Source of the DNA: Spirochaetaceae bacterium
Lineage (GTDB): Bacteria; Spirochaetota; Spirochaetia; DSM-2461
NCBI GenBank assembly: GCA_965224705.1
Contig: OZ245056.1
Coordinates: 1,888,001-1,952,000, forward strand
Length of the DNA stretch: 64,000 nucleotides
Direction: 5' to 3'
Positions 49,013 to 64,000 of the stretch are shown one piece after another. A program made the position numbers and the translations under genes. Within the stretch, counting starts at the first letter, position 1; the number at the start of each line of letters is the position of its first letter. Under the pieces are notes generated by a model, which saw only the letters and a program-made list of their open reading frames with translations, ran no database searches and was not told the DNA's origin.

Positions 49013-49233
49013 GCAATTGCTTTCGGAATTAGTACTGAAAAGAAGGATGTGGTTTCCTCCCCGGGCTGATCGCTCACATCAATTGACAACAGTTGACACG
49101 GAAATCCTCCATTTTCCAGGTACCAGTTCTGACCGTTACTGACACAGCCTCAGTTTTGGATTGTCGGCGGGATACCATAACTGAAAGTGCCGCCTTGCCT
49201 TGCGTCCAGAACCAGGCTAAACTGAAAGTCATC

Positions 49234-50997
49234 GTGAAAAAGAAACTGGAACAGGGCATTACCGATTTCAAGGAATTCATCAGTGAAAGCTGCTATTTTG
49301 TCGATAAAACCCGTCTCATAGCGCACCTCATCGACCATCCCAGCAAAGTGCATCTCATCACCCGTCCCCGGCGCTTCGGCAAAACCCTGAACCTGAGCAT
49401 GATCCGCTACTTCTTTGAGGCCCCCCCACCGGGCGGAGATAGTGACGGCGTGCCGCCCAATGCCGCCCTGTTTGACGACATGTCCATCGCGGAACATCCC
49501 CGGTGCCGCGAATACATGGGGCAGTATCCGGTGATTGTGCTAAGTTTCAAGGATGCCAAGGGGGCCTCGCATACGGAGTGCATGGAAATCATCAGGGATA
49601 TGCTCTCCGCGGAATATCAACGACATGAATACTTGCAAAACTGTGGAGTACTGCGCGAAGCTGATAAAGAGTTGTTTGTCAAAATATCGAATAGAAAAGG
49701 TACGGATCAGGACTGCGCGCAATCGATAAAACATCTTTCCTCCTGGCTGAAGCGCGCCTACAACCAACCGGTTTACATCCTGCTGGACGAGTACGACACC
49801 CCCCTGCATGCCGCCTACACCGGCAGCTTCTACGATGAAATGATTGCCTTCATCCGCAGCTTCATGGTGCAGACCTTCAAGGACAACCCCAATTTGAAGC
49901 AGGCGGTGGTCATCGGGATACTGAAGGTGGCGCAGGAGAGCATCTTCAGCGACTTCAACAATCCGGCGGTGTCCACCTTGCTTGATCCCGACATGGAGGA
50001 CTGTTTTGGCTTCACGGAAGCCGAAGTAGAGACCATGGCCGCCCACTTCGACATGGAAGACCGGATGGACGGCATCCGGGAGTGGTACAACGGCTACATC
50101 TTCGGGGGGGACACGGTCATCTACAACCCCTGGAGCATCGTCAATTACCTGCGAAAGCCTTCCGCCGGACTGCGCCCCTACTGGGTGCACACCAGCGACA
50201 ACAGACTCATCAAGAAAGTACTGCATCTGGATAAGAGGAACAGCCGGGAAGTCGTTGAAAAACTGATCCGGGGAGAGGAAGTCAGGCGGGAGGTGGCGCT
50301 CAACATTGCCTATCCGCAGATAGAAAGAAACACGGATGCCGTGTGGAGCTTTCTGCTCCACGGAGGCTATCTTAAGGCCGACGAGCGGCAGCAGCTCCAC
50401 ACCTTCATCACCTACCGGCTTGCCATCCCCAATCTGGAAGTGAAGGTGGTCTACGAAAAGGTTATCCGGGACTGGCTGGAGGAGGACGTGGAGATAAGCG
50501 ATTCCTTTCAGTCCTTCATCCGCGGCATTCGCGAGGGAGATACCGGTCTGATCGAAGAGGGACTCGGAGACATCCTCTTCGGCCTCGCCAGTTATCACGA
50601 TACGGCATCGCGGGACAGGAGGGAGGAAAGGAAACGGACGGAGGGCTTCTATCACGGTCTGGTGCTGGGTATGCTGGCCTATCTGGGCGGTGAATACATG
50701 GTGGAGAGCAACCGCGAATGCGGCATGGGGCGCCCCGACATCGTCTTGATCCGGCGCGATACCGGCTCCGGGCGGCCCGGCAGGGTTCTTCTCTTTGAGT
50801 TCAAGCGGGAGGATGCTGGTGGAACGACGCCCCTGGAGCAGTTGGCGGGGGAGGCGTATTGCCAGGCGGAGCAAAAATACCTTGAGGGCCTGAGGAAGAA
50901 GTGGGAGCCGGGGGAAATCCTTGTTCTGGGGGTGGGCTTTCGGGGCAGGGAACTGGCACTGGAGGGGGGAGCGAATCTCCCCGGTTTTGAGTCATGA
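49234..50997 (+). CDS. AAA-ATPase-like + PD-(D/E)xK nuclease protein, copy 1
   Basis: GITDF, FVDKT, RPRRFGKTLNLSM, LDEYD, WYNGY, YNPWS, EGFYHG, SNRE.G.GRPDI..FEFK; GTG start. Confidence 0.9.
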   Translation: MKKKLEQGITDFKEFISESCYFVDKTRLIAHLIDHPSKVHLITRPRRFGKTLNLSMIRYFFEAPPPGGDSDGVPPNAALFDDMSIAEHPRCREYMGQYPVIVLSFKDAKGASHTECMEIIRDMLSAEYQRHEYLQNCGVLREADKELFVKISNRKGTDQDCAQSIKHLSSWLKRAYNQPVYILLDEYDTPLHAAYTGSFYDEMIAFIRSFMVQTFKDNPNLKQAVVIGILKVAQESIFSDFNNPAVSTLLDPDMEDCFGFTEAEVETMAAHFDMEDRMDGIREWYNGYIFGGDTVIYNPWSIVNYLRKPSAGLRPYWVHTSDNRLIKKVLHLDKRNSREVVEKLIRGEEVRREVALNIAYPQIERNTDAVWSFLLHGGYLKADERQQLHTFITYRLAIPNLEVKVVYEKVIRDWLEEDVEISDSFQSFIRGIREGDTGLIEEGLGDILFGLASYHDTASRDRREERKRTEGFYHGLVLGMLAYLGGEYMVESNRECGMGRPDIVLIRRDTGSGRPGRVLLFEFKREDAGGTTPLEQLAGEAYCQAEQKYLEGLRKKWEPGEILVLGVGFRGRELALEGGANLPGFES

Positions 50998-51078
50998 GTT
51001 TTAGAGTGTCGGCGGGATACCATAACTGAAAGTGCCGCCTTGCCTTGCGTCCAGAACCAGGCTAAACTAAAAGTCATC

Positions 51079-52842
51079 GTGAAAAAGAATCTGACTCAGG
51101 GCATCACCGATTTCAAGAAATTCATCGACAATGATTGCTACTTTGTCGATAAAACTCATCTCATTGGGCATCTTATCAATGACCCCAGTGAGGTACACCT
51201 GATCACCCGCCCCCGGCGCTTCGGCAAAACCCTGAACCTGAGCATGATCCGCTACTTCTTCGAGGCCCTCCCACCGGGCGGAGATAGCAGCGATCCACCA
51301 CCCAATGAACCCTTGTTCAATGGTATGTCCATCGCGGAACATCCCCAATACCGCGAATACATGGGGAAATACCCTGTGATATACTTAAGTTTCAAGGACG
51401 TGAAAAAATCGACATATCAAGATTGCATGACTCTTATCAGGAACATGCTCTCTGCGGAATATCAACGGCATGAGTATTTACAAGATTGTGGTGTCTTGAA
51501 TGACAGAGAACGGGTACAATTTGAGAAAATATTGTGCAATAAGGGCAGCGATCAGGATTGCGAACAATCCATAGCCTTTCTGTCTATATGGCTCAAACGC
51601 GCCTACAACCAACCGGTCTACATCCTGCTGGACGAGTACGACACCTCCCTGCATGCCGCCTACACCGGCAGCTTCTACGATGAAATGATTGCCTTCATCC
51701 GCAGCTTCATGGTGCAGACCTTCAAGGACAACCCCAATTTGAAGCAGGCGGTGGTCATCGGGATACTGAAGGTGGCCCAGGAGAGCATCTTCAGCGACTT
51801 CAACAATCCGGCGGTGTCCACCTTGCTCGATCCCGAAATGGAGGACTGTTTTGGCTTCACGGAAGCCGAAGTAGAGACCATGGCCGCCCACTTCGACATG
51901 GAAAACAGGATGGACGGCATCCGGGAGTGGTACAACGGCTACATCTTTGGCGGAGACACGGTCATCTACAATCCCTGGAGCATCGTCAATTACCTGCGAA
52001 AGCCTTCCGCCGGACTGCGCCCCTACTGGGTGCACACCAGCGACAACAGACTCATCAAGAAAGTACTGCATCTGGATAAGAGGAACAGCCGGGAAGTTAT
52101 TGAGAAACTGATCCGGGGAGAGGAGGTCAGGCGGGAGGTGGTGCTCAACATTGCCTATCCGCAGATAGAAAGAAACACGGATGCCGTGTGGAGCTTTCTT
52201 CTCCACGGAGGCTATCTCAAGGCTGACGAGCGGCAGCAGATCCACACCTTCATCACCTACCGGCTTGCCATCCCCAATCTGGAAGTGAAGGTGGTCTACG
52301 AAAAGGTTGTCCGCGACTGGCTGGAGGAGGACGTGGAGATAAGCGATTCCTTTCAGTCCTTCATCCGCGGCATTCGCGAGGGAGATACCGGTCTGATTGA
52401 AGAGGGTCTCGGAGACATCCTCTTCGGCCTTGCCAGCTATCACGATACGGCATCACGAGGCAGGAGGGAGGAAAGGAAACGGACGGAGGGCTTCTATCAC
52501 GGTCTGGTGCTGGGAATGCTGGCCTACCTGGGCGGTGAATACATGGTGGAGAGCAACCGCGAATGCGGCATGGGCCGTCCCGACATCGTCTTGATCCGGC
52601 GCGATACCGGCTCCGGACGGCCTGCCAGGGTTCTTCTCTTTGAGTTCAAACGGGAGGATGCCGGTGGAACAACGCCTCTGGAGCATCTGGCGCGGGAGGC
52701 ATATTGCCAGGCGGAGCAAAAATACCTTGCGGGCCTGAGAAAGAAGTGGCAGCCGGAGGAAATCCTTGTTCTGGGGGTGGGCTTTCGGGGCAGGGAACTG
52801 GCTCTGGAGGGGGGAGGGGAACTCCCCGGTTTTGAGTCGTGA
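51079..52842 (+). CDS. AAA-ATPase-like + PD-(D/E)xK nuclease protein, copy 2
   Basis: Same motifs; near-identical to copy 1 over the C-terminal two-thirds. Confidence 0.9.
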   Translation: MKKNLTQGITDFKKFIDNDCYFVDKTHLIGHLINDPSEVHLITRPRRFGKTLNLSMIRYFFEALPPGGDSSDPPPNEPLFNGMSIAEHPQYREYMGKYPVIYLSFKDVKKSTYQDCMTLIRNMLSAEYQRHEYLQDCGVLNDRERVQFEKILCNKGSDQDCEQSIAFLSIWLKRAYNQPVYILLDEYDTSLHAAYTGSFYDEMIAFIRSFMVQTFKDNPNLKQAVVIGILKVAQESIFSDFNNPAVSTLLDPEMEDCFGFTEAEVETMAAHFDMENRMDGIREWYNGYIFGGDTVIYNPWSIVNYLRKPSAGLRPYWVHTSDNRLIKKVLHLDKRNSREVIEKLIRGEEVRREVVLNIAYPQIERNTDAVWSFLLHGGYLKADERQQIHTFITYRLAIPNLEVKVVYEKVVRDWLEEDVEISDSFQSFIRGIREGDTGLIEEGLGDILFGLASYHDTASRGRREERKRTEGFYHGLVLGMLAYLGGEYMVESNRECGMGRPDIVLIRRDTGSGRPARVLLFEFKREDAGGTTPLEHLAREAYCQAEQKYLAGLRKKWQPEEILVLGVGFRGRELALEGGGELPGFES

Positions 52843-54596
52843 GTTTTGTGAAAAAGAAACTGGAACAGGGCATCACCGATTTCAAGAAATTCATCGACAA
52901 TGATTGTTACTTTGTCGATAAAACTCGTCTTATCGCATATCTTATTGACCATCCCAGCGAGGTGCATCTCATCACCCGCCCCCGGCGCTTCGGCAAAACC
53001 CTGAACCTAAGCATGATCCGCTACTTCTTCGAGGCCCCGCCACCGGGCGGAGATAGCAGCGATCCACCACCCAATGCGCCTTTGTTCAATGGCATGTCCA
53101 TCGCGGAACATCCCCAATACCGTGAATACATGGGGCAGTATCCGGTGATTGCGCTAAGTTTCAAGGATGCCAAGGGGGCCTCGCATACGGAGTGCATGGA
53201 AGTCATCAGGGAAATGCTGTCGGCGGAATATCAACGACATGAATACCTGCAAAACTGTGAAGTGCTGCACGAAGCCGATAAAGAGTTGTTTTTTAACATA
53301 TCGAATAGAAAAGGCACGGATCAGGACTGTGCGCAATCGATAAAACATCTCTCCTCCTGGCTCAAGCGCGCTTACAACCAACCGGTCTACATCCTTCTGG
53401 ACGAGTACGACACCCCGCTGCACGCCGCCTACACCGAAAACTTCTACGATGAAATGATCGCCTTCATCCGCAGCTTCATGGGGCAGAGCTTCAAGGACAA
53501 CCCCAATTTGAAACAGGCGGTGGTCATCGGGATACTGAAAGTGGCACAGGAAAGCATCTTCAGCGACTTCAACAATCCGGCAGTGTCCACCGTGCTGAAT
53601 GATTCCATGAAGGATTGTTTTGGTTTCACCGAGGCGGAGGTGGAGGCCATGGCCTCCCATTTCGGGCAGGAATCCCGGCTGGACGGCATAAGGGAGTGGT
53701 ACAACGGCTACATCTTCGGCGGCGACACGGTCATCTACAATCCCTGGAGTCTCGTGAGCTATTTCAGAAACATCAAGGACGGGCTTCTGCCCTACTGGGT
53801 GCACACCAGCGATAACAAACTGGTAAAAGAAGTGCTGCATCTGGACAGAAGGAACAGCAGGGAAGTCGTTGAGAAACTGATCCGGGGAGAGGAAGTCAGG
53901 CGGGAGGTGGTGCTCAACATTGCCTATCCGCAGATAGAAAGAAACACGGATGCCGTGTGGAGCTTTCTGCTCCACGGAGGCTATCTCAAGGCTGACGAGC
54001 GGCAGCAGCTCCACACCTTCATCACCTACCGGCTTGCCATCCCCAATCTGGAAGTGAAGGTGGTCTACGAAAAGGTTGTCCGGGACTGGCTGGAGGAGGA
54101 CGTGGAGATAAGCGATTCCTTTCAGTCCTTCATTCGCGGCATTCGCGAGGGAGATACCGGACTGATCGAAGAGGGACTCGGAAACATCCTCTTCGGCCTT
54201 GCCAGTTATCACGATACGGCATCGCGGGGCAGAAGGGAGGAAAGGAAACGGACGGAGGGCTTCTATCACGGCCTAGTGCTGGGAATGCTGGCCTACCTGG
54301 GCGGTGAATACATGGTGGAGAGCAACCGCGAATGCGGCATGGGCCGTCCCGACATTGTCTTGATCCGCCGCGATACCGGCTCCGGTCGGCCCACCAGGGT
54401 TCTTCTCTTTGAGTTCAAGAGGGAGGATGCCGGTGGAACAACGCCTCTGGAGCAGCTGGCACGGGAGGCGTATTGCCAGGCGGAGCAAAAATACCTTGAG
54501 GGCCTGAGGAAGAAGTGGCAGCCGGGGGAAATCCTTGTTCTGGGGGTGGGCTTTCGAGGCAGGGAACTGGCTCTGGAAACAGGCCGTGATGAATGA
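52839..54596 (+). CDS. AAA-ATPase-like + PD-(D/E)xK nuclease protein, copy 3
   Basis: Same motifs; GTGA overlap with the copy 2 stop. Confidence 0.9.
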   Translation: MSFVKKKLEQGITDFKKFIDNDCYFVDKTRLIAYLIDHPSEVHLITRPRRFGKTLNLSMIRYFFEAPPPGGDSSDPPPNAPLFNGMSIAEHPQYREYMGQYPVIALSFKDAKGASHTECMEVIREMLSAEYQRHEYLQNCEVLHEADKELFFNISNRKGTDQDCAQSIKHLSSWLKRAYNQPVYILLDEYDTPLHAAYTENFYDEMIAFIRSFMGQSFKDNPNLKQAVVIGILKVAQESIFSDFNNPAVSTVLNDSMKDCFGFTEAEVEAMASHFGQESRLDGIREWYNGYIFGGDTVIYNPWSLVSYFRNIKDGLLPYWVHTSDNKLVKEVLHLDRRNSREVVEKLIRGEEVRREVVLNIAYPQIERNTDAVWSFLLHGGYLKADERQQLHTFITYRLAIPNLEVKVVYEKVVRDWLEEDVEISDSFQSFIRGIREGDTGLIEEGLGNILFGLASYHDTASRGRREERKRTEGFYHGLVLGMLAYLGGEYMVESNRECGMGRPDIVLIRRDTGSGRPTRVLLFEFKREDAGGTTPLEQLAREAYCQAEQKYLEGLRKKWQPGEILVLGVGFRGRELALETGRDE

Positions 54597-54709
54597 TGAG
54601 GAATGGGCCATGGAAAAGTCTCTGCTTCAACATTAAATCAATATTTGGAAAGGATCTACACCTGGAAACCAGGCTGTAGCAAGCTTCCTGACACGGAATT
54701 TGATTTTGA

Positions 54710-55545
54710 GGGCACCTCTAAAAAACCCGCTTTCGGAATCTGGCGCAGAGATTTTTCACTGATACAAGGCGACAAAAACGGAATGTGCCCGGCATGAACA
54801 ATATCCAGCGGGTGAGAATCCCGCCAAGGCCCTGAAAGGCGGAAATTTGTAGAAAAAGACAAGGGTGTCCGAAGAAAGATAGACAACGCATTGAGAGTAT
54901 GCCTGCTCACCAGATGGAGATTGTCTTTCCCAATGAGGAATCTGAAGGAAGTCTAAGTCAAAATATTCGCCTGAACGAGAGTGAACCTTTGAAAGGCAGT
55001 TATGGAGGATGAGATACCTTCGGCTATTGAAGTCCCATATCCTTTACGTAAAATCCATAATTGTGCAGAAGGCAGGCGGGATATGAAATGGAGATTGGTC
55101 TTACCCGGGGAGGGCCTGTGGAATGGAAACTGTGGAACAGCGCCATAAGATTTCCTAAGCCGTGCAGGGATGCAGGGTAATCTTCCACCGGCAGTCAGAA
55201 GAACCCAGGCCGATCAGACGGGTGGAGATCCCGAAACCGGGAGGAGGAGTGAGACTTCTGGACAACTTCAAGGAGCCCGGCTATGCACAAAGCCTTTCCC
55301 AATCGGTATTTCATTGAAGAACTCGGGCAGTTTATCTATTCAGCCTGAGACTGAAAGAAATTGGACACATGCATGAGGAGCCGTGTACGGACCCGTACGC
55401 ACGGTTCTGTGAGAGGACGGCATCCCTGCTTCCGCAAGGTGCCTCCTAACTCGATGCGTAGCTGGGCTACGTGAGCATTTTGGCAACGCAGTAGCAGTGG
55501 TAAAGATCAAACCAGAAACGGAATGGGTGTTTTTTAGAGGTGCCC
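54710..55545. mobile_element. MITE family A copy interrupted by a group II intron
   Basis: TIRs GGGCACCTCTAAAAAA / TTTTTTAGAGGTGCCC; removing 54783-55455 restores a sequence collinear with the reverse complement of 35851-36002. Confidence 0.88.
54783..55455 (+). mobile_element. Internally deleted (non-autonomous) group IIC intron, 673 nt
   Basis: 5' ATGTGCCCGGCATG; IIC domain I blocks GGGTGAGAATCCCG, CAAGGGTGTCCG, GGAATCTGAAGGAAG, TCTTACCCGGGGAGG; domain V GAGCCGTGTACGGACCCGTACGCACGGTTC (55378-55407); domain VI ending CTCCTAACTCGAT; RT remnants. Confidence 0.9.
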
Positions 55546-55546
55546 T

Positions 55547-55916
55547 TTGTATTCCCGGATGAATTTCCTGGGAGTTCTGGAACAGATGAGTGTGATGGTG
55601 GTATTGCCGTAATTGGCTTCCGGGTTTTCTCTGAGGTAGAGATTTGTGTATATGGAAAGATCGTAAATATCCTGTGCTCTTACGGCATCGCCATATGATT
55701 TGTAGCTGACCAGATTGTACGGCGCGAAATAGTTGAAGATGTCGAATTCTACGCTGGCAGTGTTTTGTTTGATAAGGAGGACATCCAGCCTCTTGGGCTT
55801 TTGAGCATTTCATGTTCCGTTTCAACCAGATATCCGCAAGAGCCGAAAAATTCCCTTGCCTGTCTTTTGAAAAAGGTGTCCAGGGTAATCTGGGCTCTGG
55901 GAAGTGTCTTTTCCAT
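55547..55916 (-). pseudogene. Rpn-like gene copy A, frameshifted and 3'-truncated at the MITE
   Basis: Near-identical to the 5' part of copy E (62029-62829); 1-nt deletion near 55791; homology stops at the MITE end. Confidence 0.85.
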
Positions 55917-56077
55917 CGTTTGCAGGATAGCATGATTCTGAAGACCTATCCATACCGGGTTTTTCAATCAAACAGCGTTGCCGTTCATCACCAGGCCCCG
56001 TGCGAAAGCCCCCCTGCATTTTGAGCTTCCCACCTCCGTTGTCTCAAAAAATGTGAAATTTCCTGAAAACGGCACTA

Positions 56078-56174
56078 AACCGCAGAGGACGCAGAGGTAC
56101 GCAGAGAAATATGAGATAAAAATCTGGTCAATAATCACCTAAAACACTCTGCGCTCTCTGCGTTCTCTGCGGTT
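56078..56174. repeat. CGCAGAG palindrome, unit A
   Basis: AACCGCAGAGGACGCAGAGGTACGCAGAG...CTCTGCGCTCTCTGCGTTCTCTGCGGTT. Confidence 0.9.
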
Positions 56175-56565
56175 AAAAAAGCATGGATAGCACAAAAAAG
56201 CTGGATGGGATAATGACTATCGACTTGAAGTCCTTAGTAGGTTTTAGATGCGATTGCCCTGTCGGTTCTCACAAATTGGCCCGAACATTTTGGGGGATAG
56301 CGATAAATTCACCATCAATTTCCATTACGATGACAGGGAATGGCCCGAGATTCCTGTTTTTGGGGAAAAGTATGTCCAGAACATAGAAAAATGGCTTTTT
56401 TTGTGAAAGGCTTGACAAAAGCTTCATTTTCAATAAAAAGTTGGTTGAGGTAGCATCAGAAGTAGCAACATACCTCCTCTGACTGATACTTTCATGGAAA
56501 GTTTTTGGATTAGCTTTATTGTGTGATACAATCAATTGTATGCTAGGGTAGGAGAGTACGTATTC

Positions 56566-56772
56566 ATGGAGAAAAAAAGTACATTGATTCTTTCGGATGA
56601 GCAGATTGCCTATCTGAGAGACAAGCCGGTTGTAGGCAATGATGAAACTCCCACAGAGGAGGAACAATGGCGTAGGAATGCCAAAATCAATGCCGAATCT
56701 GCGGCAAAAATGGCTCAGGATGCCGTGGAGGCCTTGATGACAGGCTATGATTCACGTAGATGCACGAAGTAA
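56566..56772 (+). CDS. Small hypothetical protein (68 aa), possible antitoxin
   Basis: GGAG RBS; overlaps the next ORF; upstream palindrome ATACAAT-CA-ATTGTAT. Confidence 0.5.
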   Translation: MEKKSTLILSDEQIAYLRDKPVVGNDETPTEEEQWRRNAKINAESAAKMAQDAVEALMTGYDSRRCTK

Positions 56773-57295
56773 ATGCCTGGTCGATGTTGTCGATGAATTT
56801 CTGAATGCATTATTTCGAGATTTATTTCGATCAGAATTATCGCTAACAGGGACATATCTGGATTACTTCAGAGCCAATCGCCGAACAATCAAATCGGCAC
56901 AAGAAGAGTATTACAAAAATCTGGAAAAGTGGAGAGATTGGTTTTCCCTTACCAACAGGGTGGATAGGCATAAGGTGGCAGCGATAACTGCGCATTATTT
57001 GATAAAGCATTTCCCCATAGTAACAATTGAAAATCGTCCTGAATTAAAGAATGTTGGAATACTGCAAATTATCGATGAATTGTCCACTTTATTTGTAGCC
57101 TTAAGCCGCTTGAAAAATGAAGGAGTTGCGTATGATCCAGAAAAGTCTCTTATAGGCAGTTTTATTCAAACATTTAGAAGGCATTCCCTGGTATTGGGGG
57201 AATTTGACAATTATGCAATCTCAGTTGAATCCATGGCAAGAAATTTCTATCTGCTGGAAGAAGCACATAGAGTGAAGGCAACAAAGCCTTCCTGA
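56747..57295 (+). CDS. Hypothetical helical protein (182 aa, DRHKVAA motif)
   Basis: Long ORF in an AT-rich segment. Confidence 0.6.
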   Translation: MIHVDARSKCLVDVVDEFLNALFRDLFRSELSLTGTYLDYFRANRRTIKSAQEEYYKNLEKWRDWFSLTNRVDRHKVAAITAHYLIKHFPIVTIENRPELKNVGILQIIDELSTLFVALSRLKNEGVAYDPEKSLIGSFIQTFRRHSLVLGEFDNYAISVESMARNFYLLEEAHRVKATKPS

Positions 57296-57533
57296 ATATG
57301 TCTCTATGCTGATTATTTCTTCCACTGTTTTGAAGCCTGATACACCAAACTTTGTTGTGTAGATTTATACAAAACGCCTGTCGGCGATACAAACCTCCCC
57401 CCAAGGCTGACGAATCGCACTCCCCGGCAGCGTTGCCGTTCATCACCAGGCCCCGCATGAAAGCCCCTCAGCCATTTTGAGCTTCCCACCTCCGTTGTCT
57501 CAAAAAATGTGAAATTTCCTGAAAACGGCACTA

Positions 57534-57630
57534 AACCGCAGAGGACGCAGAGGTACGCAGAGAAATATGAGATAAAAATCTGGTCAATAATCACCTAAAA
57601 CACTCTGCGCTCTCTGCGTCCTCTGCGGTT
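57534..57630. repeat. CGCAGAG palindrome, unit B
   Basis: Same element; unit homology spans about 57428-57732. Confidence 0.9.
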
Positions 57631-57732
57631 AAAAAAGCATGAATAAGACTTTCATAATGTCTCAAAGAATGCGTTAGAATTTTCTATCATGATTTATGAA
57701 GCGTAATGTTTTGCGAAAGAATACCTCTTAGA

Positions 57733-59702
57733 CCGAAGTTTTTGGCGAAGAAGTTAGTAATTCTCTATCAAAAAAAGATTTACAAATAAATTCTGTGTTG
57801 TTTACTGCTTACACCTCCCTATTCGCATGGGATTGTACTGTACGTTTAGCAACTCAAATACCTTTGTATGAAAAGGATTTAACTCACTTCCCTGCGAGTA
57901 GCAGGGGGCGTTATCCACGGCAGGTCGAATGTCGATGATGGCTACAGCCGAAAGAGAATCAATAAGGGATCGAAAGCTCATCACGGGATATCCTTCTTCG
58001 TTAACTTTATGTTCTGCTTTGTGATTGCCATGAGGTGAACGCAAAGCCTTCCTCACCGGTGAGCTTTGCCTGCTTCTGTCTTGATACTCATCCATAAACA
58101 GCAGAGGTTTGAGTTTTTCCCTCATAGCAAACTCTACGTAATAGGCAAGCAAGCACAGATAAAAGTGCCCTTTAACCCGACTTGCAAGACGATGATGAAT
58201 GGGACGGGCCTGTAGTCCGGCTATTTTCAAGCAGCGAAACACTTCCTCCACTCGTTGAAGATTTTTGTAGTTCTCCACACATTCTGGTGTTTGCATTCTA
58301 TCGCTTTCCACATTGGTACGCAGGATATAAATACCGTCACAGGCCTCTTCCTGTCCGATGGATTCTTCGTTTCGAGAAAACAAAAAGTCATCGTCCCTGA
58401 TCTCTACATTGAAATGCTTGCCCATTTTATACTTTCCAATAATTCGGCCATAGCGTTCGGCAATCTTCACTTTGCCCCGTAAAGCTCTTTTTCCCCTTCT
58501 TGCGGCTTTCTGGATGGCCCATAATTTATCTTCTGCTGCACTCAACAGTTCCCGCCGTTTGTTCCTGCGTTCCTGAGCAAGATAAGGATTGCGGCACACG
58601 ATAAGCCGTTCGCCGGGAAAGTCTTCGCTGTGTATTTCCCATAAATCCGTTTCATCAAAGAGTTCCGGGGTAATACTCTGGGCAGTAACCAATTTCTTGA
58701 CCGCTGGAGCACTCAAGGCTCCAAGCCATCTTATCCAATCCCCATTGTCAAGCATCTCTTCTTTAATGTTTTTGGCTGTAACCATTCCCCGATCACCGAC
58801 AAACACTATTGATTTGCCCAGCTTCCTTAACTTTTCAAGCTGCTCTGCTACGGTAGTGCCGTCACTTCTATTGCCCTTAAATACTTGAGCTCCAACCGGA
58901 ACGCCGTATCGATTTGTCATGACACCTAACTCTATTTGCCGTTTACCCCTTTTCCCGTCCCGGCTATATCCGTATTCGGCAAGTGAACAGTGAGAACCTT
59001 CATACCAAAAGGAACTCAAGTCGTACAGCAAGATCGTATCATCCTTGAGATGACGGTTTCTTAATCGCTGTTCAATACTTCCCCACTGCTCTTCCAGATT
59101 ATCAAGTGCTCCGTAAAGATCAGCAGGCTTGACTTCTCCCAGACCAAGAATGCGGTTCAAAGAGCTATGTGTATTCTTTTCATCAAGAGCATAAGCGGTC
59201 GCAAGCTTTGATGCAGGGTGAATAATCCTCTGGGCGATCATTGCCTTAATCAGCATCAGGTTATCAGGAGACACACCTTTAAGAAGACTCTCTATGTTGA
59301 GTTGTTTCATGGTTTGAATGATGGCCAGAGAGTGTCCGTGGGCGTAGGATCGTTCAATCGTGAACATTTTATCCGGAGAGATAATTCTTGCTCCCTTAAG
59401 CAGAGCATGAAATCCTTCTCTAATTTCTGCCGGCCAATCAGTGAGATTGGCTATTGTTGTAGTCGTGGGTTTTCCATTGACGCGGGTTGATTTTCGAAGG
59501 AGCCAGCAGCCTGGAGAGTTTCTATTTTTGATATACTGGATATACATGTGCTGTATTATAGCATGTATTATTTATATTTCAAGCTATTAGTAATAGAAAA
59601 ACCCGTATTACATGCGTACATTTTCCGTCTTTTTCAGTGGTATACTCTTGTAACTTTTTTTCAGAAAAAGAAATTAACTGGATTTTGCGCCAAAAACTTC
59701 GG
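57733..59702 (-). mobile_element. IS1634-family insertion sequence (1970 bp)
   Basis: Perfect 15-bp TIR CCGAAGTTTTTGGCG; 6-bp TSD CTTAGA at 57727-57732 and 59703-59708. Confidence 0.92.
57802..59547 (-). CDS. IS1634-family DDE transposase
   Basis: PASKLAT, LYDLSS.WYEG, GYSRDGK, VGDRGM, DGIYILRT, Y..L..VE..FR.LK. Confidence 0.92.
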   Translation of the reverse strand: MYIQYIKNRNSPGCWLLRKSTRVNGKPTTTTIANLTDWPAEIREGFHALLKGARIISPDKMFTIERSYAHGHSLAIIQTMKQLNIESLLKGVSPDNLMLIKAMIAQRIIHPASKLATAYALDEKNTHSSLNRILGLGEVKPADLYGALDNLEEQWGSIEQRLRNRHLKDDTILLYDLSSFWYEGSHCSLAEYGYSRDGKRGKRQIELGVMTNRYGVPVGAQVFKGNRSDGTTVAEQLEKLRKLGKSIVFVGDRGMVTAKNIKEEMLDNGDWIRWLGALSAPAVKKLVTAQSITPELFDETDLWEIHSEDFPGERLIVCRNPYLAQERRNKRRELLSAAEDKLWAIQKAARRGKRALRGKVKIAERYGRIIGKYKMGKHFNVEIRDDDFLFSRNEESIGQEEACDGIYILRTNVESDRMQTPECVENYKNLQRVEEVFRCLKIAGLQARPIHHRLASRVKGHFYLCLLAYYVEFAMREKLKPLLFMDEYQDRSRQSSPVRKALRSPHGNHKAEHKVNEEGYPVMSFRSLIDSLSAVAIIDIRPAVDNAPCYSQGSELNPFHTKVFELLNVQYNPMRIGRCKQ

Positions 59703-59703
59703 C

Positions 59704-59892
59704 TTAGAGCTTCTTGATTTCCGCTTCGCTCAGGCCGGTGGCCTTGATGATGAGTTTCATATCGGCTCCGGCAGCCTTGAAGTTTTTGGCTGTTTGCGTT
59801 TTGCCTTTTTCCATACCTTTTTCCATACCATCATCCCAGGCCTTTTCAAGCTGAGGTCTCATGAGTTCGGTTACATCGGCAACGGGTACCAT
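59704..59892 (-). CDS. Predicted intragenic in-frame small protein (62 aa) of copy C
   Basis: AAGGAGG-N5-ATG with an upstream TTGACA-N16-TATAAT. Confidence 0.65.
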   Translation of the reverse strand: MVPVADVTELMRPQLEKAWDDGMEKGMEKGKTQTAKNFKAAGADMKLIIKATGLSEAEIKKL

Positions 59893-60516
59893 GTTATCCT
59901 CCTTGCCCTCAAAGATTGATATTCTCATTATAGTCCCCTTAAGCAGCTTGTCAACAATCTGCCTGGGAAAACCGGACTCCTTGATTTCATCCTGGCCGGA
60001 TAAACGGTCAATATTCCGACAGAATTCGGATAGAAACACACCATCTGGCCCCGATAGCCGGATGATTTCTATGTTGATGATGTGAATTCTGTACATTCCA
60101 TAGTCGCCGATGAAGTGACCGGGACATGTTTCGGTGAAAGACCCTTTATATTCCCGGATGAATTTTCTGGGGGTTCTGGAACAGATTAACGTGATGGTGG
60201 TATTGCCGTAATTGGCATCCGGGTTTTCTCTGAGGTAGAGATTTGTGTATATGGAGAGGTCGTAGATATCCTGTGCTCTTACGGCATCGCCGTACGATTT
60301 GTAGCTGACCAGATTGTACGGCGCGAAATAGTTGAAGATATCAAATTCTACGCTGGCGGTGTTTTGCTTGATAAGGAGGACATCCAGTTTTTTCGGGTTT
60401 TTGAGCATTTCATGTTCCGTTTCAACCAGATATCCGCAGGAGCCAAAAAATTCCCTTGCCTGTCTTTTGAAAAAGGTGTCCAGGGTAATCTGGGCTCTGG
60501 GGAGTGTCTTTTCCAT
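59704..60516 (-). CDS. Rpn-like PD-(D/E)xK-family protein, copy C (intact)
   Basis: PKKLDVLLIK...NLVSYKS; C-terminal GMEKG..TAKNFK..G.D...IIKATGLS..EI..L typical of Rpn/YhgA-like tails; ATG 60516 (TTG 60567 also possible). Confidence 0.75.
   Translation of the reverse strand: MEKTLPRAQITLDTFFKRQAREFFGSCGYLVETEHEMLKNPKKLDVLLIKQNTASVEFDIFNYFAPYNLVSYKSYGDAVRAQDIYDLSIYTNLYLRENPDANYGNTTITLICSRTPRKFIREYKGSFTETCPGHFIGDYGMYRIHIINIEIIRLSGPDGVFLSEFCRNIDRLSGQDEIKESGFPRQIVDKLLKGTIMRISIFEGKEDNMVPVADVTELMRPQLEKAWDDGMEKGMEKGKTQTAKNFKAAGADMKLIIKATGLSEAEIKKL
59927..59954 (-). promoter_or_regulatory. Intragenic consensus sigma70 promoter, copy C (also at 61083-61110 and 62240-62267)
   Basis: TTGACA AGCTGCTTAAGGGGAC TATAAT. 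Confidence 0.7.
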
Positions 60517-60677
60517 CGTTGACAGGATAACATGATTTCGAAGACCTATCCATACCGGATTTTTCAATCATACAGCGTTGCCGTTCATCACCAGGCCCCG
60601 CATGAAAGCCCCCCTGCATTTTGAGCTTCCCACCTCCGTTGTCTCAAAAAATGTGAAATTTCCTGAAAACGGCACTA

Positions 60678-60774
60678 AACCGCAGAGGACGCAGAGGTAT
60701 GCAGAGAAATATGAGATAAAAACCTGGTCAATAATTACCTTGAACACTCTGCGCTCTCTGCGTCCTCTGCGGTT
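60678..60774. repeat. CGCAGAG palindrome, unit C
   Basis: Same element. Confidence 0.9.
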
Positions 60775-60871
60775 AAAAAAGCATGAATAAGACTTTCATA
60801 ATGTCTCAAAGAATGCGTTAGAGTTTTCTATCGTGATTTGTGAAACGTAACGTTTTGGGAAAGAATACCCC

Positions 60872-61048
60872 TTAGAGCTTCTTGATTTCCGCTTCGCTCA
60901 GGCCGGTGGCCTTGATGATGAGTTTCATATCGGCTCCGGCGGCCTTGAGGCCTTTAGCTGTTTGCGCTACACCTTCACGCTTACCATCATCCCAGGCCTT
61001 TTCAAGCTGAGGTCTCATGAGTTCGGTTACATCGGCAACAGGTACCAT
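60872..61048 (-). CDS. Predicted intragenic small protein (58 aa) of copy D, intact
   Basis: Same promoter/RBS/ATG; variant tail GKREGVAQTAKGL. Confidence 0.6.
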   Translation of the reverse strand: MVPVADVTELMRPQLEKAWDDGKREGVAQTAKGLKAAGADMKLIIKATGLSEAEIKKL

Positions 61049-61673
61049 GTTATCCTCCTTGCCCTCAAAGATTGATATTCTCATTATAGTCCCCTTAAGC
61101 AGCTTGTCAACAATCTGCCTGGGAAAACCGGACTCCTTGATTTCATCCTGGCCGGATAAACGGTCAATATTCCGACAGAATTCGGATAGAAACACACCAT
61201 CTGGCCCCGATAGCCGGATGATTTCTATGTTGATGATGTGAATTCTGTACATTCCATAGTCGCCGATGAAGTGACCGGGACATGTTTCGGTGAAAGACCC
61301 TTTATATTCCCGGATGAATTTTCTGGGGGGTTCTGGAACAGATTAACGTGATGGTGGTATTGCCGTAATTGGCATCCGGGTTTTCTCTGAGGTAGAGATT
61401 TGTGTATATGGAGAGGTCGTAGATATCCTGTGCTCTTACGGCATCGCCGTACGATTTGTAGCTGACCAGATTGTACGGCGCGAAATAGTTGAAGATATCA
61501 AATTCTACGCTGGCGGTGTTTTGCTTGATAAGGAGGACATCCAGTTTTTTCGGGTTTTTGAGCATTTCATGTTCCGTTTCAACCAGATATCCGCAGGAGC
61601 CAAAAAATTCCCTTGCCTGTCTTTTGAAAAAGGTGTCCAGGGTAATCTGGGCTCTGGGGAGTGTCTTTTCCAT
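60872..61673 (-). pseudogene. Rpn-like gene copy D, +1 frameshift in a G run
   Basis: G6 at 61325-61330 versus G5 in copy C; otherwise near-identical to C except in the tail. Confidence 0.8.
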
Positions 61674-61834
61674 CGTTGACAGGATAACATGATTTCGAAG
61701 ACCTATCCATACCGGATTTTTCAATCATACAGCTTTGCCGTTCATCGCCAGGCCCCGTGCGAAAGCCCCCCTGCATTTTGAGCTTCCCACCTCCGTTGTC
61801 TCAAAAAATGTGAAATTTCCTGAAAACGGCACTA

Positions 61835-61931
61835 AACCGCAGAGGACGCAGAGGTACGCAGAGAAATATGAGATAAAAATCTGGTCAATAATCACCTAAA
61901 ACACTCTGCGCTCTCTGCGTCCTCTGCGGTT
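61835..61931. repeat. CGCAGAG palindrome, unit D
   Basis: Same element. Confidence 0.9.
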
Positions 61932-62028
61932 AAAAAAGCATGAATAAGGCTTTCATAATGTCTCAAAGAATGCGTTAGAATTTTCTATCGTGATTTGTGA
62001 AGCGTAACGTTTTGCGAAAGAATACCTC

Positions 62029-62205
62029 TTAGAGCTTCTTGATTTCCGCTTCGCTCAGGCCGGTGGCCTTGATGATGAGTTTCATATCGGCTCCGGCAGC
62101 CTTGAAGTTTTTTGCTGTTTGCATTTTGCCTTTTTCCATACCATCATCCCAGGCCTTTTCAAGCTGAGGTCTCATGAGTTCGGTTACATCGGCAACGGGT
62201 ACCAT
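62029..62205 (-). CDS. Predicted intragenic small protein (58 aa) of copy E
   Basis: Same promoter/RBS/ATG. Confidence 0.6.
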   Translation of the reverse strand: MVPVADVTELMRPQLEKAWDDGMEKGKMQTAKNFKAAGADMKLIIKATGLSEAEIKKL

Positions 62206-62829
62206 GTTATCCTCCTTGCCCTCAAAGATTGATATTCTCATTATAGTCCCCTTAAGCAGCTTGTCAACAATCTGCTTTGGAAAACCGGACTCCTTAATTT
62301 CAGCCTGGCCGGATAAACGGTCAATATTCCGACAGAATTCGGATAGAAACACACCATCTGGCCCCGATAATCGGATGATTTCTATGTTGATGATGTGAAT
62401 TCTATACATTCCATAGTTGCCGATGAAGTGCCCGGAGCATGCTTCGGTGAAAGATTCTTTGTATTCCCGGATGAATTTCCTGGGAGTTCTGGAACAGATG
62501 AGTGTGATGGTGGTATTGCCGTAATTGGCATCCGGGTTTTCTCTGAGGTAGAGATTTGTGTATATGGAAAGATCGTAGATATCCTGTGCTCTCACGGCAT
62601 CGCCGTATGATTTGTAGCTGATCAGATTGTACGGCGCAAAATAGTTGAAGATGTCGAATTCTACGCTGGCAGTCTTTTGCTTGATAAGGAGGACATCCAG
62701 CCTTTTTGGGCTTTTGAGCATTTCGTGCTCCGTTTCAACCAGATATCCGCAGGAGCCGAAGAACTCCCTTGCCTGTCTTTTGAAAAAGGTGTCCAGGGTA
62801 ATCTGGGCTCTGGGGAGTGTCTTTTCCAT
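62029..62829 (-). CDS. Rpn-like PD-(D/E)xK-family protein, copy E (intact)
   Basis: Paralog of C with scattered substitutions. Confidence 0.75.
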   Translation of the reverse strand: MEKTLPRAQITLDTFFKRQAREFFGSCGYLVETEHEMLKSPKRLDVLLIKQKTASVEFDIFNYFAPYNLISYKSYGDAVRAQDIYDLSIYTNLYLRENPDANYGNTTITLICSRTPRKFIREYKESFTEACSGHFIGNYGMYRIHIINIEIIRLSGPDGVFLSEFCRNIDRLSGQAEIKESGFPKQIVDKLLKGTIMRISIFEGKEDNMVPVADVTELMRPQLEKAWDDGMEKGKMQTAKNFKAAGADMKLIIKATGLSEAEIKKL

Positions 62830-62991
62830 CGTTGACAGGATAACATGATTTCGAAGACCTATCCATACCGGATTTTTCAATCAAACAGCGTTGCCATTCA
62901 TCTCCAGGCCCCGCATGAAAGCCCCCCAGCCATTTTGATCTTCCCACCTCCGTTGTCTCAAAAAATGTGAAATTTCCTGAAAACGGCACTA

Positions 62992-63088
62992 AACCGCAGA
63001 GGACGCAGAGGTACGCAGAGAAATATGAGATAAAAATCTGGTCAATAATCACCTAAAACACTCTGCGCTCTCTGCGTCCTCTGCGGTT
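62992..63088. repeat. CGCAGAG palindrome, unit E
   Basis: Same element; unit homology ends near 63170. Confidence 0.9.
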
Positions 63089-63642
63089 AAAAAAGCATGA
63101 ATAAGGCTTTCATAATGTCTCAAAGAATAAGGTAAAATTTTCTATCGTGATTTGTGAAGCGTAACGTCTTGTCCAGCGGGGCAGTTTCGGCCAATACGGT
63201 GATAGCGATAAATTCACTATCAATTTCCACTACGATGACAATGTTCTTCTTCCCACAATACCTGCGGGAACAACCTGTATCAAAGGGAATGTTCTTAGAA
63301 GCACATTTCCTACGGAACTATTCATAAATACGCCTCCAACAGGCACAACCGCACAAACGAGTAAGGAAACAGTTTTTGAATTCGCAACTCAATAATTGTC
63401 GGGTTGAATAAGCCAGTATAACAGTATTTCTGAAATCTCCGGATAATCCCGGCTTGGTTTTACTGAGTTGGGATTTTTCACCGATGATGGAAGGGCCTCT
63501 TGCTTGCAGCAGGGGTGCCTCCTCCCGGTTGGATCGGAGTGGCCTGCTGCTTCAACGGCTTTTTCAGTTGACGATCACATTTCACGGCATTATTTTAGGA
63601 TGGAATGCTTTGGTTATACATTTCTTTAAGAAGGAGCACATT

Positions 63643-64000
63643 GTGAGTAATTCAAAAAAAAGAAATTTCGTCTTCATCGGAATAACAGCCGTCCTGATGG
63701 CAGTAACCTTACTGGCCTGCCCATCACCAGCAAAACCGGATCCTCCAGTTGTTGATACGACAAGCCCGGTTGTCGCGGGAACACCGGAACAGGAACCCAG
63801 GGAGAGTGATTCCACATACAAGGTAGCTCTCAGATTCGCCATTACAGAAGAGAATGCTGTTTCCTATGTGTCCGGTGTCACCGACGCAACATTGAAGGCG
63901 GATCTGGGCACCATCACAGTGGGAGGCACAAATCCCTCGAGTGAGGTGCCGACAATTGACTCGGCCACCCTGGATACTGCCAATAAGAAAATCGTCATTA
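63643..64000 (+). CDS. Lipoprotein, 5' part (runs off the window)
   Basis: AAGGAG RBS, GTG start, MSNSKKRNFVFIGITAVLMAVTLLAC lipobox; frame open to the window end. Confidence 0.75.
   Translation, partial: MSNSKKRNFVFIGITAVLMAVTLLACPSPAKPDPPVVDTTSPVVAGTPEQEPRESDSTYKVALRFAITEENAVSYVSGVTDATLKADLGTITVGGTNPSSEVPTIDSATLDTANKKIVI

Follow-up and report, generated by a model that had tools for sequence, protein, structure and literature searches.

Does a tandem array of spirochaete genes encode toxins that carry their own antitoxins inside them, and if so, what kind of protein is the toxin? The question is raised by a locus in a stretch of 64,000 nucleotides (nt) of contig OZ245056.1 from a Spirochaetaceae bacterium, hereafter the window; coordinates are window positions unless a genome is named. 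A sequence-only reading had proposed an intragenic toxin-antitoxin system here, analogous to Rpn. The intragenic RpnL-RpnS design has already been published for RpnA-E and RpnP2 of E. coli (Zhong et al. 2023, PMC10400941; PF04754, COG5464), and a commentary raises the question of whether internal starts yield antitoxins outside Rpn as well (PMC10400984). We report that the array belongs to a broad unannotated family that bears the full sequence signature of the Rpn design on a head domain missed by the Rpn models.

Internal start signals and their conservation

The array is built of head-to-tail units of 1156-1157 bp each, with copies named A to E. The features of copies C, D and E are the following.

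62029..62829, negative strand: long form of copy E, intact, 266 aa (P0001); head with predicted PD-(D/E)xK fold at residues 12-202, low-confidence linker at 207-214, then an RpnS-like tail
62837..62865, negative strand: predicted promoter for the long form of copy E, TGGATA-N17-(TG-n)TATCCT, with the ATG 7 nt past it
62240..62267, negative strand: internal promoter motif of copy E, TTGACA-N16-TATAAT, in codons V188-D189-K190 and T195-I196-M197
62211..62217, negative strand: internal Shine-Dalgarno sequence (SD) of copy E, AAGGAGG, dG -11.2 kcal/mol
62029..62205, negative strand: small open reading frame (ORF) of copy E, 58 aa, RpnS-like
60872..61673, negative strand: long form of copy D, split by a +1 frameshift in a C run at 61330-61325
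61083..61110, negative strand: internal promoter motif of copy D, intact
60872..61048, negative strand: small ORF of copy D, 58 aa, intact, with SD
59704..60516, negative strand: long form of copy C, intact, 270 aa (P0002), with one 4-aa repeat more than copy E
59927..59954, negative strand: internal promoter motif of copy C
59704..59892, negative strand: small ORF of copy C, 62 aa

The internal promoters of copies C, D and E match the consensus at 12 of 12 positions, and each sits 34 nt 5' of AAGGAGG-ATAAC-ATG. We recovered the motifs at 59954-59927, 61110-61083 and 62267-62240, and the in-frame ATGs at 59892, 61048 and 62205 that open ORFs of 62, 58 and 58 aa, just as the sequence-only reading had described them. 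Its claim of three genes within genes stands for the promoters and small ORFs of all three copies, but not for the long frame of copy D. The extra C at 61330-61325 splits that frame into 140 and 126 aa, so that copy D is not a full-length gene; judging from the sequence, this may be either a mutation or an assembly error.

In the source genome (G000, 3.0 Mb; other G numbers denote genomes of relatives) perfect TTGACA-N16-TATAAT sites occur 18 times against 0.54 expected. Fourteen of these lie within the family and the other four precede IS1634-type transposase genes. Perfect promoters inside long same-strand ORFs number 12, all of them in this family. A dG of -11 or lower is reached by just 0.38% of 8061 sampled internal in-frame ATG or GTG codons. 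Folding of the small-ORF leader revealed nothing unusual (z -0.12).

Conservation was assessed on 85 near-full-length DNA copies, fragments excluded, which fall into 25 lineages at 70% identity. Fourteen lineages read S-x-K at the active site (30-89% identity to copy E) and 11 read E-x-K. Conservation of promoter and ribosome binding site beyond amino-acid constraint in diverged homologues had been set beforehand as a refutation test, and both signals beat synonymous shuffles in the S-x-K lineages (combined p 7.6e-7 for the promoter, 1.9e-5 for the SD). The -35 hexamer reads TTGACA in eight lineages, TCGACA in three, and TAGACA, TTGCTA and TTGCAT in one each. Asp189 is encoded by GAC in 12 of 12 (4.2 expected); seven other conserved Asp columns are mixed. 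In 13 of 14 lineages (3.2 expected) the internal SD outranks every other in-frame SD of the gene, and its AGGAG/GGAGG core is kept through different residues and frames (KEE, RR, WR, WEG, GR, EGE). The in-frame ATG or GTG with the gene's best SD lies 31-46 nt past the -10 in most lineages. Between copy E and its counterparts in G009 and G012, synonymous divergence (dS) ranges from 1.7 to saturation in the head and is 0.52-0.69 at codons 186-209, a stretch of 24 codons only; within G000 the drop there is small. In the E-x-K lineages the internal SD is the best in 11 of 11 (p 0.007; two G540 picks are uncertain), and the internal Met of E-x-K proteins is as conserved as the initiator (53 versus 52 of 62).

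The internal start motif is found at 16 places in G000. Nine copies are intact, five have a broken head and an intact small ORF, and in two both are broken. None of the nine copies with an intact head has a broken small ORF, and five of the seven broken heads keep theirs. In three of the five head-broken copies (near 224-232 kb) the first ~20 codons are replaced by a CGCAGAG hairpin repeat. Head-less copies retain promoter and small ORF. From these signals we consider that the predicted small product is very probably made.

Start, head and tail of the long form

The MEKTL ATGs of the long forms (62829, 61673 and 60516) lie 7 nt past TGTTATCCT and lack an SD (dG +1.0 kcal/mol, against -11.2 at the internal ATG), as had been claimed. 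Among the 13 S-x-K lineages with a usable 5' end, none has an SD of -5 or lower at the long start (best -1.8). For comparison, of 1869 genome frames 53% reach that SD strength and 22% lack an SD altogether. A -10-like hexamer lies 4-9 nt 5' of the long start in 7 of the 13 lineages, a count made without a chance control. It is TG-extended in G000, G001 and G012, in the latter two 5-7 nt before the start. Leaderless mRNAs are described as common in Leptospira in the available part of PMC5243855. We predict that the long-form mRNA of copy E is leaderless or has a short leader, and translation of the long form from a leaderless mRNA is plausible. The long form had been said to look leaderless and weakly expressed; the former agrees with the SD-less start, but weak expression is not implied by a leaderless mRNA.

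The Rpn models miss the head. The two window proteins gave no Pfam family above cut-off and no PF04754 or PF12784 match, and neither of these two families was matched by 50 homologues. TIGR01784 matches only the tail of the window proteins (20.9 and 27.7 bits against a cut-off of 52.1), and reaches E of at most 0.01 in 52 of 99 family members. The canonical Rpn genes of the same genomes do match the Rpn hidden Markov models. Aligned by hhalign with both Rpn families, the head gave a probability below 1%, a comparison of low power given that the positive control, PF12784-type against PF04754-type, gave just 3.3%.

The AlphaFold model (predicted local distance difference test, pLDDT, 89) is confident in the head and less so at residues 207-214, which surround Met209; a long helix and two short ones follow. 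VIA-align compared the head best with AF1548 (Z 8.6, root-mean-square deviation (rmsd) 3.3, 121 residues aligned), NucS (Z 8.3) and McrC (Z 7.7), and most of the top rows have the PD-(D/E)xK fold. The best Foldseek match was NucS (prob 1.00, E 8.5e-3), with none at E of 0.001 or lower, and a BFVD fold search gave only generic nuclease-like matches. As modelled, and with matches of moderate score, the head has a restriction-endonuclease-like PD-(D/E)xK fold.

We read the active site as D13, D45, S71-Y-K73, D86 and Y90. All 99 selected full-length proteins in the alignment keep D45 and K73. The S-Y-K noted at the E-x-K position is indeed there, at residues 71-73; that E-x-K is the Rpn motif does not hold, since E. 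coli RpnA has E-x-Q in the available part of PMC5350276. Ser or Ala stands at 71 in 37 of the 99 proteins, 31 of which have Asp or Glu at 86. The remaining 62 have Glu or Asp at 71, and 58 of them carry Lys or Arg at 86. In the model D86 lies in helix 81-97, after strand 67-72. The ratio dN/dS of ~0.05-0.12 indicates that the head is under purifying selection.

Sequence places the S-x-K family within a broader, unnamed family with E-x-K. Homologue searches yielded 20 close proteins and 310 representatives at 50% clustering (E of at most 0.001); the family listing is based on the best 150 of these 310. Among titled records the closest homologues come from Spirochaetaceae, Leptonemataceae and Leptospirales metagenome-assembled genomes. 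Of 401 genomes sampled across the phylum 10 carry the family, as do 16 of 190 in the class of G488. Look-alike Atlas clusters come from Bacillota, Cyanobacteriota and Spirochaetota. Viral contigs held no relatives among 86 pattern matches, tblastn against plasmids and phages gave no match, and a metagenome scan gave only two distant loci. The order of motifs, an N-terminal D-x-x-F-K helix, D, S/E-x-K and a helix with D/K-x-x-x-Y, parallels that of Rpn heads. For this reason we prefer a distant sister branch to an independent graft: most probably the Rpn superfamily has a distant third branch beside PF04754 and PF12784, to which this head belongs. Through the shared tail, eggNOG could place some members in COG5464. 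In the literature searched we found no description of this family or of tail exchange; Dataset S1 of PMC10400941 could list members under COG5464.

The tail resembles RpnS. Residues 220-265 superpose on RpnA-S (7TH0) with Z 7.1 and rmsd 1.9 over 46 of 46 residues, and the small product gave a profile hit at E 0.014. TrpR-like and FlhD helix-turn-helix folds are also similar (Z 4.5-5.2). The small product is modelled as an RpnS three-helix domain. Tail lengths differ by multiples of 4 aa in G000 (13/13), G001 (11/11), G515 (6/6), G497 (3/3) and G012 (10/12). A modelled complex of small and long form scored 0.65 against 0.00 for the best control, a mark reached by 116 of 157 solved pairs but by just 2 of 215 mismatched ones. 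At least 96% of contacts are common to the runs, and pLDDT in the partner does not fall below 86. Most of the interface is formed between the two tail helices, and head residues 193-201 touch too. The model supports binding of the small form to the long form; its score may reflect resemblance to the solved RpnA-S dimer.

Proposed mechanism and alternatives

We suggest, with reasonable confidence, that each intact unit is an RpnL/RpnS-type intragenic toxin-antitoxin. A predicted PD-(D/E)xK nuclease would be translated from a short-leader mRNA without SD, and its C-terminal 58-78 residues would be made separately from the internal promoter and SD, with transcription starting ~27 nt 5' of the ATG. 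More small than long product would be expected. Catalysis would fall to D45 and K73, and D86 in the following helix would take over from the lost E71, as in a Cfr10I-type migration. The small protein would likely inhibit the long form by pairing with its tail helix. Release of the long form would follow on phage infection or stress. We regard the case for an anti-phage role as evenly balanced.

In favour of an analogous intragenic toxin-antitoxin are the conserved signals, the fold of the head, a tail like that of RpnS, the 4-aa repeats, a long start without SD and the modelled complex; the broken copy D and a neighbourhood that is no clear defence island count against it. Several further points weigh against it. 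Lineages share ancestry, so the combined p values overstate; singly the promoter reaches p of 0.05 or lower in only 6 of 14 lineages, and it is weak in G497 (6/12), G515 (7/12) and G495 (8/12). In the E-x-K lineages a promoter signal is absent (p 0.98 fixed, 0.37 free). When 65 columns were scanned two-sidedly, Asp189 (p 0.0026) came second to Ser71, whose codon bias is likely due to the split serine codon sets. At the active site, 6 of the 37 S/A71 proteins lack an acid at 86, and two of the 14 lineages, G012 (Ala86) and G535 (Ser86), have none at 71 or 86. The covariation of 71 and 86 (Fisher p 1e-18) was rejected as independent evidence, since the swap of E to S and K to D is a single event on the tree (support 48).

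The tail lengths of G488 do not follow the 4-aa rule. The order of loss in G000 was likewise rejected as evidence; it also fits target size and is not significant given it (~0.77^7 = 0.16, an estimate). In G012, the lineage with Ala86, two of 12 copies combine an intact head with a broken tail. Most neighbouring genes serve transport or metabolism, or are insertion sequence (IS) elements and other multicopy nucleases. Around the G000 arrays, 79 proteins compared with Pfam and 41 with PADLOC gave one PDC-S01 match, without a random-locus control; the neighbourhood is not clearly a defence island. The family itself has no PADLOC match beyond tail-level ones. RNA contigs at 85% likeness over 61900-64000, from two mollusc-metagenome-labelled metatranscriptome runs and two of unrecorded type, gave no clear evidence of small or long product and were not used as evidence. 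Their depth is 186 and 917 at 62042-62112, 0 and 146 in the next bin, 2-20 in the head and near zero at 62184-62254, figures from contigs that cannot rank gene parts; their loose ends show other genes, and the tail is shared with canonical Rpn.

Could the small protein not be made at all? The promoter might serve downstream read-through, or the motifs might be by-products of the protein sequence. The three of 14 lineages with a weak promoter fit this, but the spacing of the best SD from the -10, its persistence through different amino acids, the internal Met of the E-x-K proteins and the signals kept by head-less copies all speak against it, and we rank it last, as highly improbable. A second possibility is that the S-x-K head binds DNA as a weak or dead nuclease and that the small helix-turn-helix product regulates transcription or serves as a dimer partner rather than as an antitoxin. 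None of the 37 S/A71 proteins retains the canonical E, six of them are without acid at 86, and the tail does resemble TrpR-like and FlhD folds. Against this, D45 and K73 are invariant, the best tail match is RpnA-S, and the acid at 86 in 31 of 37, where the relatives carry Lys or Arg, recalls the migration described for Cfr10I in the available part of PMC3424549. We consider this reading very unlikely.

A selfish role deserves more weight. The genes would then be multicopy recombination or mobility nucleases with the internally made tail as a dominant-negative brake, and phage defence would play no part. Inh of IS50/Tn5 provides an analogy for such a tail. Many copies are arrayed in G000, G001, G012, G488 and G515, amid IS1634, group II intron remnants and other multicopy nucleases, with many decayed copies among them, and RpnA promotes RecA-independent recombination according to the available part of PMC5350276. 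However, no inverted repeat was found to bound a 1156-1157 bp head-to-tail unit, upstream sequence varies between arrays, and the hypervariable 4-aa repeats suggest conflict-driven selection. It is also argued that PD-(D/E)xK Rpn proteins are not autonomous transposases (PMC10400941). We consider the selfish nuclease unlikely.

Surrounding elements, proposed tail exchange and known systems

The remainder of the array contains remnants, insertions and repeats.

55546..55916, negative strand: copy A remnant, residues 1-124, with a frameshift near residue 42, cut by an IS-like end; without internal promoter or small ORF
57428..57713, negative strand: copy B remnant; the upstream spacer alone remains and the gene is lost
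57733..59702, negative strand: IS1634 element with terminal inverted repeats, inserted at the copy C stop codon with a 6-bp duplication, TCTAAG
62985..63090, negative strand: CGCAGAG palindromic hairpin repeat, one per 1156-1157 bp unit, fold z = -10
near 61838-61928, 60681-60771, 57537-57627 and 56081-56171: further CGCAGAG hairpins

The CGCAGAG palindrome has 118 half-site matches genome-wide, and the hairpin no Rfam match (window 54000-64000 scanned). The IS1634 transposase genes (57733-59702; G000 1045212, 2894260, 1530551 and 3602) have a consensus or near-consensus promoter and look leaderless, since their ATG lies 7 nt past the -10. An IS-like remnant at 54709-55546, with 35-nt inverted ends and group II intron fragments inside (RF02001, RF00029), truncates copy A; a canonical Rpn gene at G000 963558 is interrupted by the same end, whose motif is present 12 times genome-wide. 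On the positive strand between copies A and B, two overlapping small ORFs of 78 and 182 aa (56536-56772 and 56747-57295), neither of which matched Pfam or PADLOC, could form another toxin-antitoxin pair. The array is adjoined at 49093-54596 on the positive strand by three tandem AAA-ATPase_like + PDDEXK_9 genes (PF09820 + PF08011; two scanned), and a further such gene lies at ~1.655 Mb of G000 beside Rpn-like remnants. At G000 1958708 (L169, ~8700) a head-truncated copy lies in or beside a region with a 2201-aa Ig-repeat gene. Here a deletion sets the SD directly past the -10, and the 58-aa ORF is intact.

The tail is also found in canonical Rpn genes. G000 has 13 PF12784 matches and no PF04754 match; two of the 13 lie in or beside arrays at 223 kb and 1003 kb. 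BLASTP similarity to these genes is limited to residues 223-266. Over the last 30 codons, 13 family tails and 11 PF12784-type tails of G000 are on average 84% identical (up to 96%), against means of 56-63% for the same family in G001, G009 and G012; only part of the tail-bearing genes of these three relatives was included. A tree of 72 tails, from 90 columns only, rejects a single clade for the family (approximately unbiased test, p 0.00165). We infer from the sequences that tails were exchanged or converted between families near the 12-nt repeats. PF04754-type Rpn tails of G001 and G012 do not mix with those of this family. The PF04754-type genes there (L047, L147-L155, L157, L158) have long 4-aa repeat runs, and L047 holds four in tandem. 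Tentatively, the RpnS tail could be a portable antitoxin cassette in at least three nuclease families, with the S/E-x-K family as a third class marked by a rearranged active site, leaderless-toxin/strong-SD-antitoxin logic and recombinational tail exchange within the genome, so that antitoxins could cross-inhibit different nucleases in one cell; we regard this as possible, if somewhat doubtful. The family offers a test case for migration of an active-site acid, for translation asymmetry setting the toxin-to-antitoxin ratio, and for whether tails common to nuclease families break the cognate specificity reported for RpnS.

As far as sequence and models can tell, the spirochaete genes share with E. 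coli Rpn a PD-(D/E)xK-fold head, an internal in-frame start with ribosome binding site, a predicted internal promoter, a three-helix tail matching 7TH0, variable 4-aa repeats in the long helix, tandem arrays and stand-alone small copies. They differ in a head without PF04754 or PF12784 match, in the motif D13/D45/S71-x-K73/D86 in place of D11/D63/E82-x-Q84/R94 of RpnA (residues from the available part of PMC5350276), in repeats that start ~22 residues past the internal Met rather than 8-20 (PMC10400941), and in the SD-less long form. PDDEXK_2 (PF12784)/TIGR01784 genes of the same genome share the tail DNA and have their own internal AGGAGG with ATG or GTG. Their heads, in contrast, read E-I-Q...R-x-x-x-Y, and the last 330 nt hold no consensus internal promoter except one weak site. 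In G000 (L111-L116) they have -35/-10 motifs 6-10 nt before the ATG and predicted small products of 75-100 aa.

The PD-XXK-E site of Cfr10I appears similar in that the third core strand lacks an acid and the second core helix has one (available part of PMC3424549); unlike for Cfr10I, no methyltransferase partner was seen, and there is no sequence relation. The unnamed E-Y-K-S family, whose Atlas clusters are called 'hypothetical protein' or, apparently by misnaming, '3-isopropylmalate dehydrogenase family protein', keeps E71 and K86 and has no conserved internal sigma-70 promoter signal. Its members are true sequence homologues with a conserved internal Met, and in 11 of 11 spirochaete lineages the best SD stands there. 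If our reading is true, the gene-within-a-gene defence design of E. coli Rpn extends to a third nuclease family.

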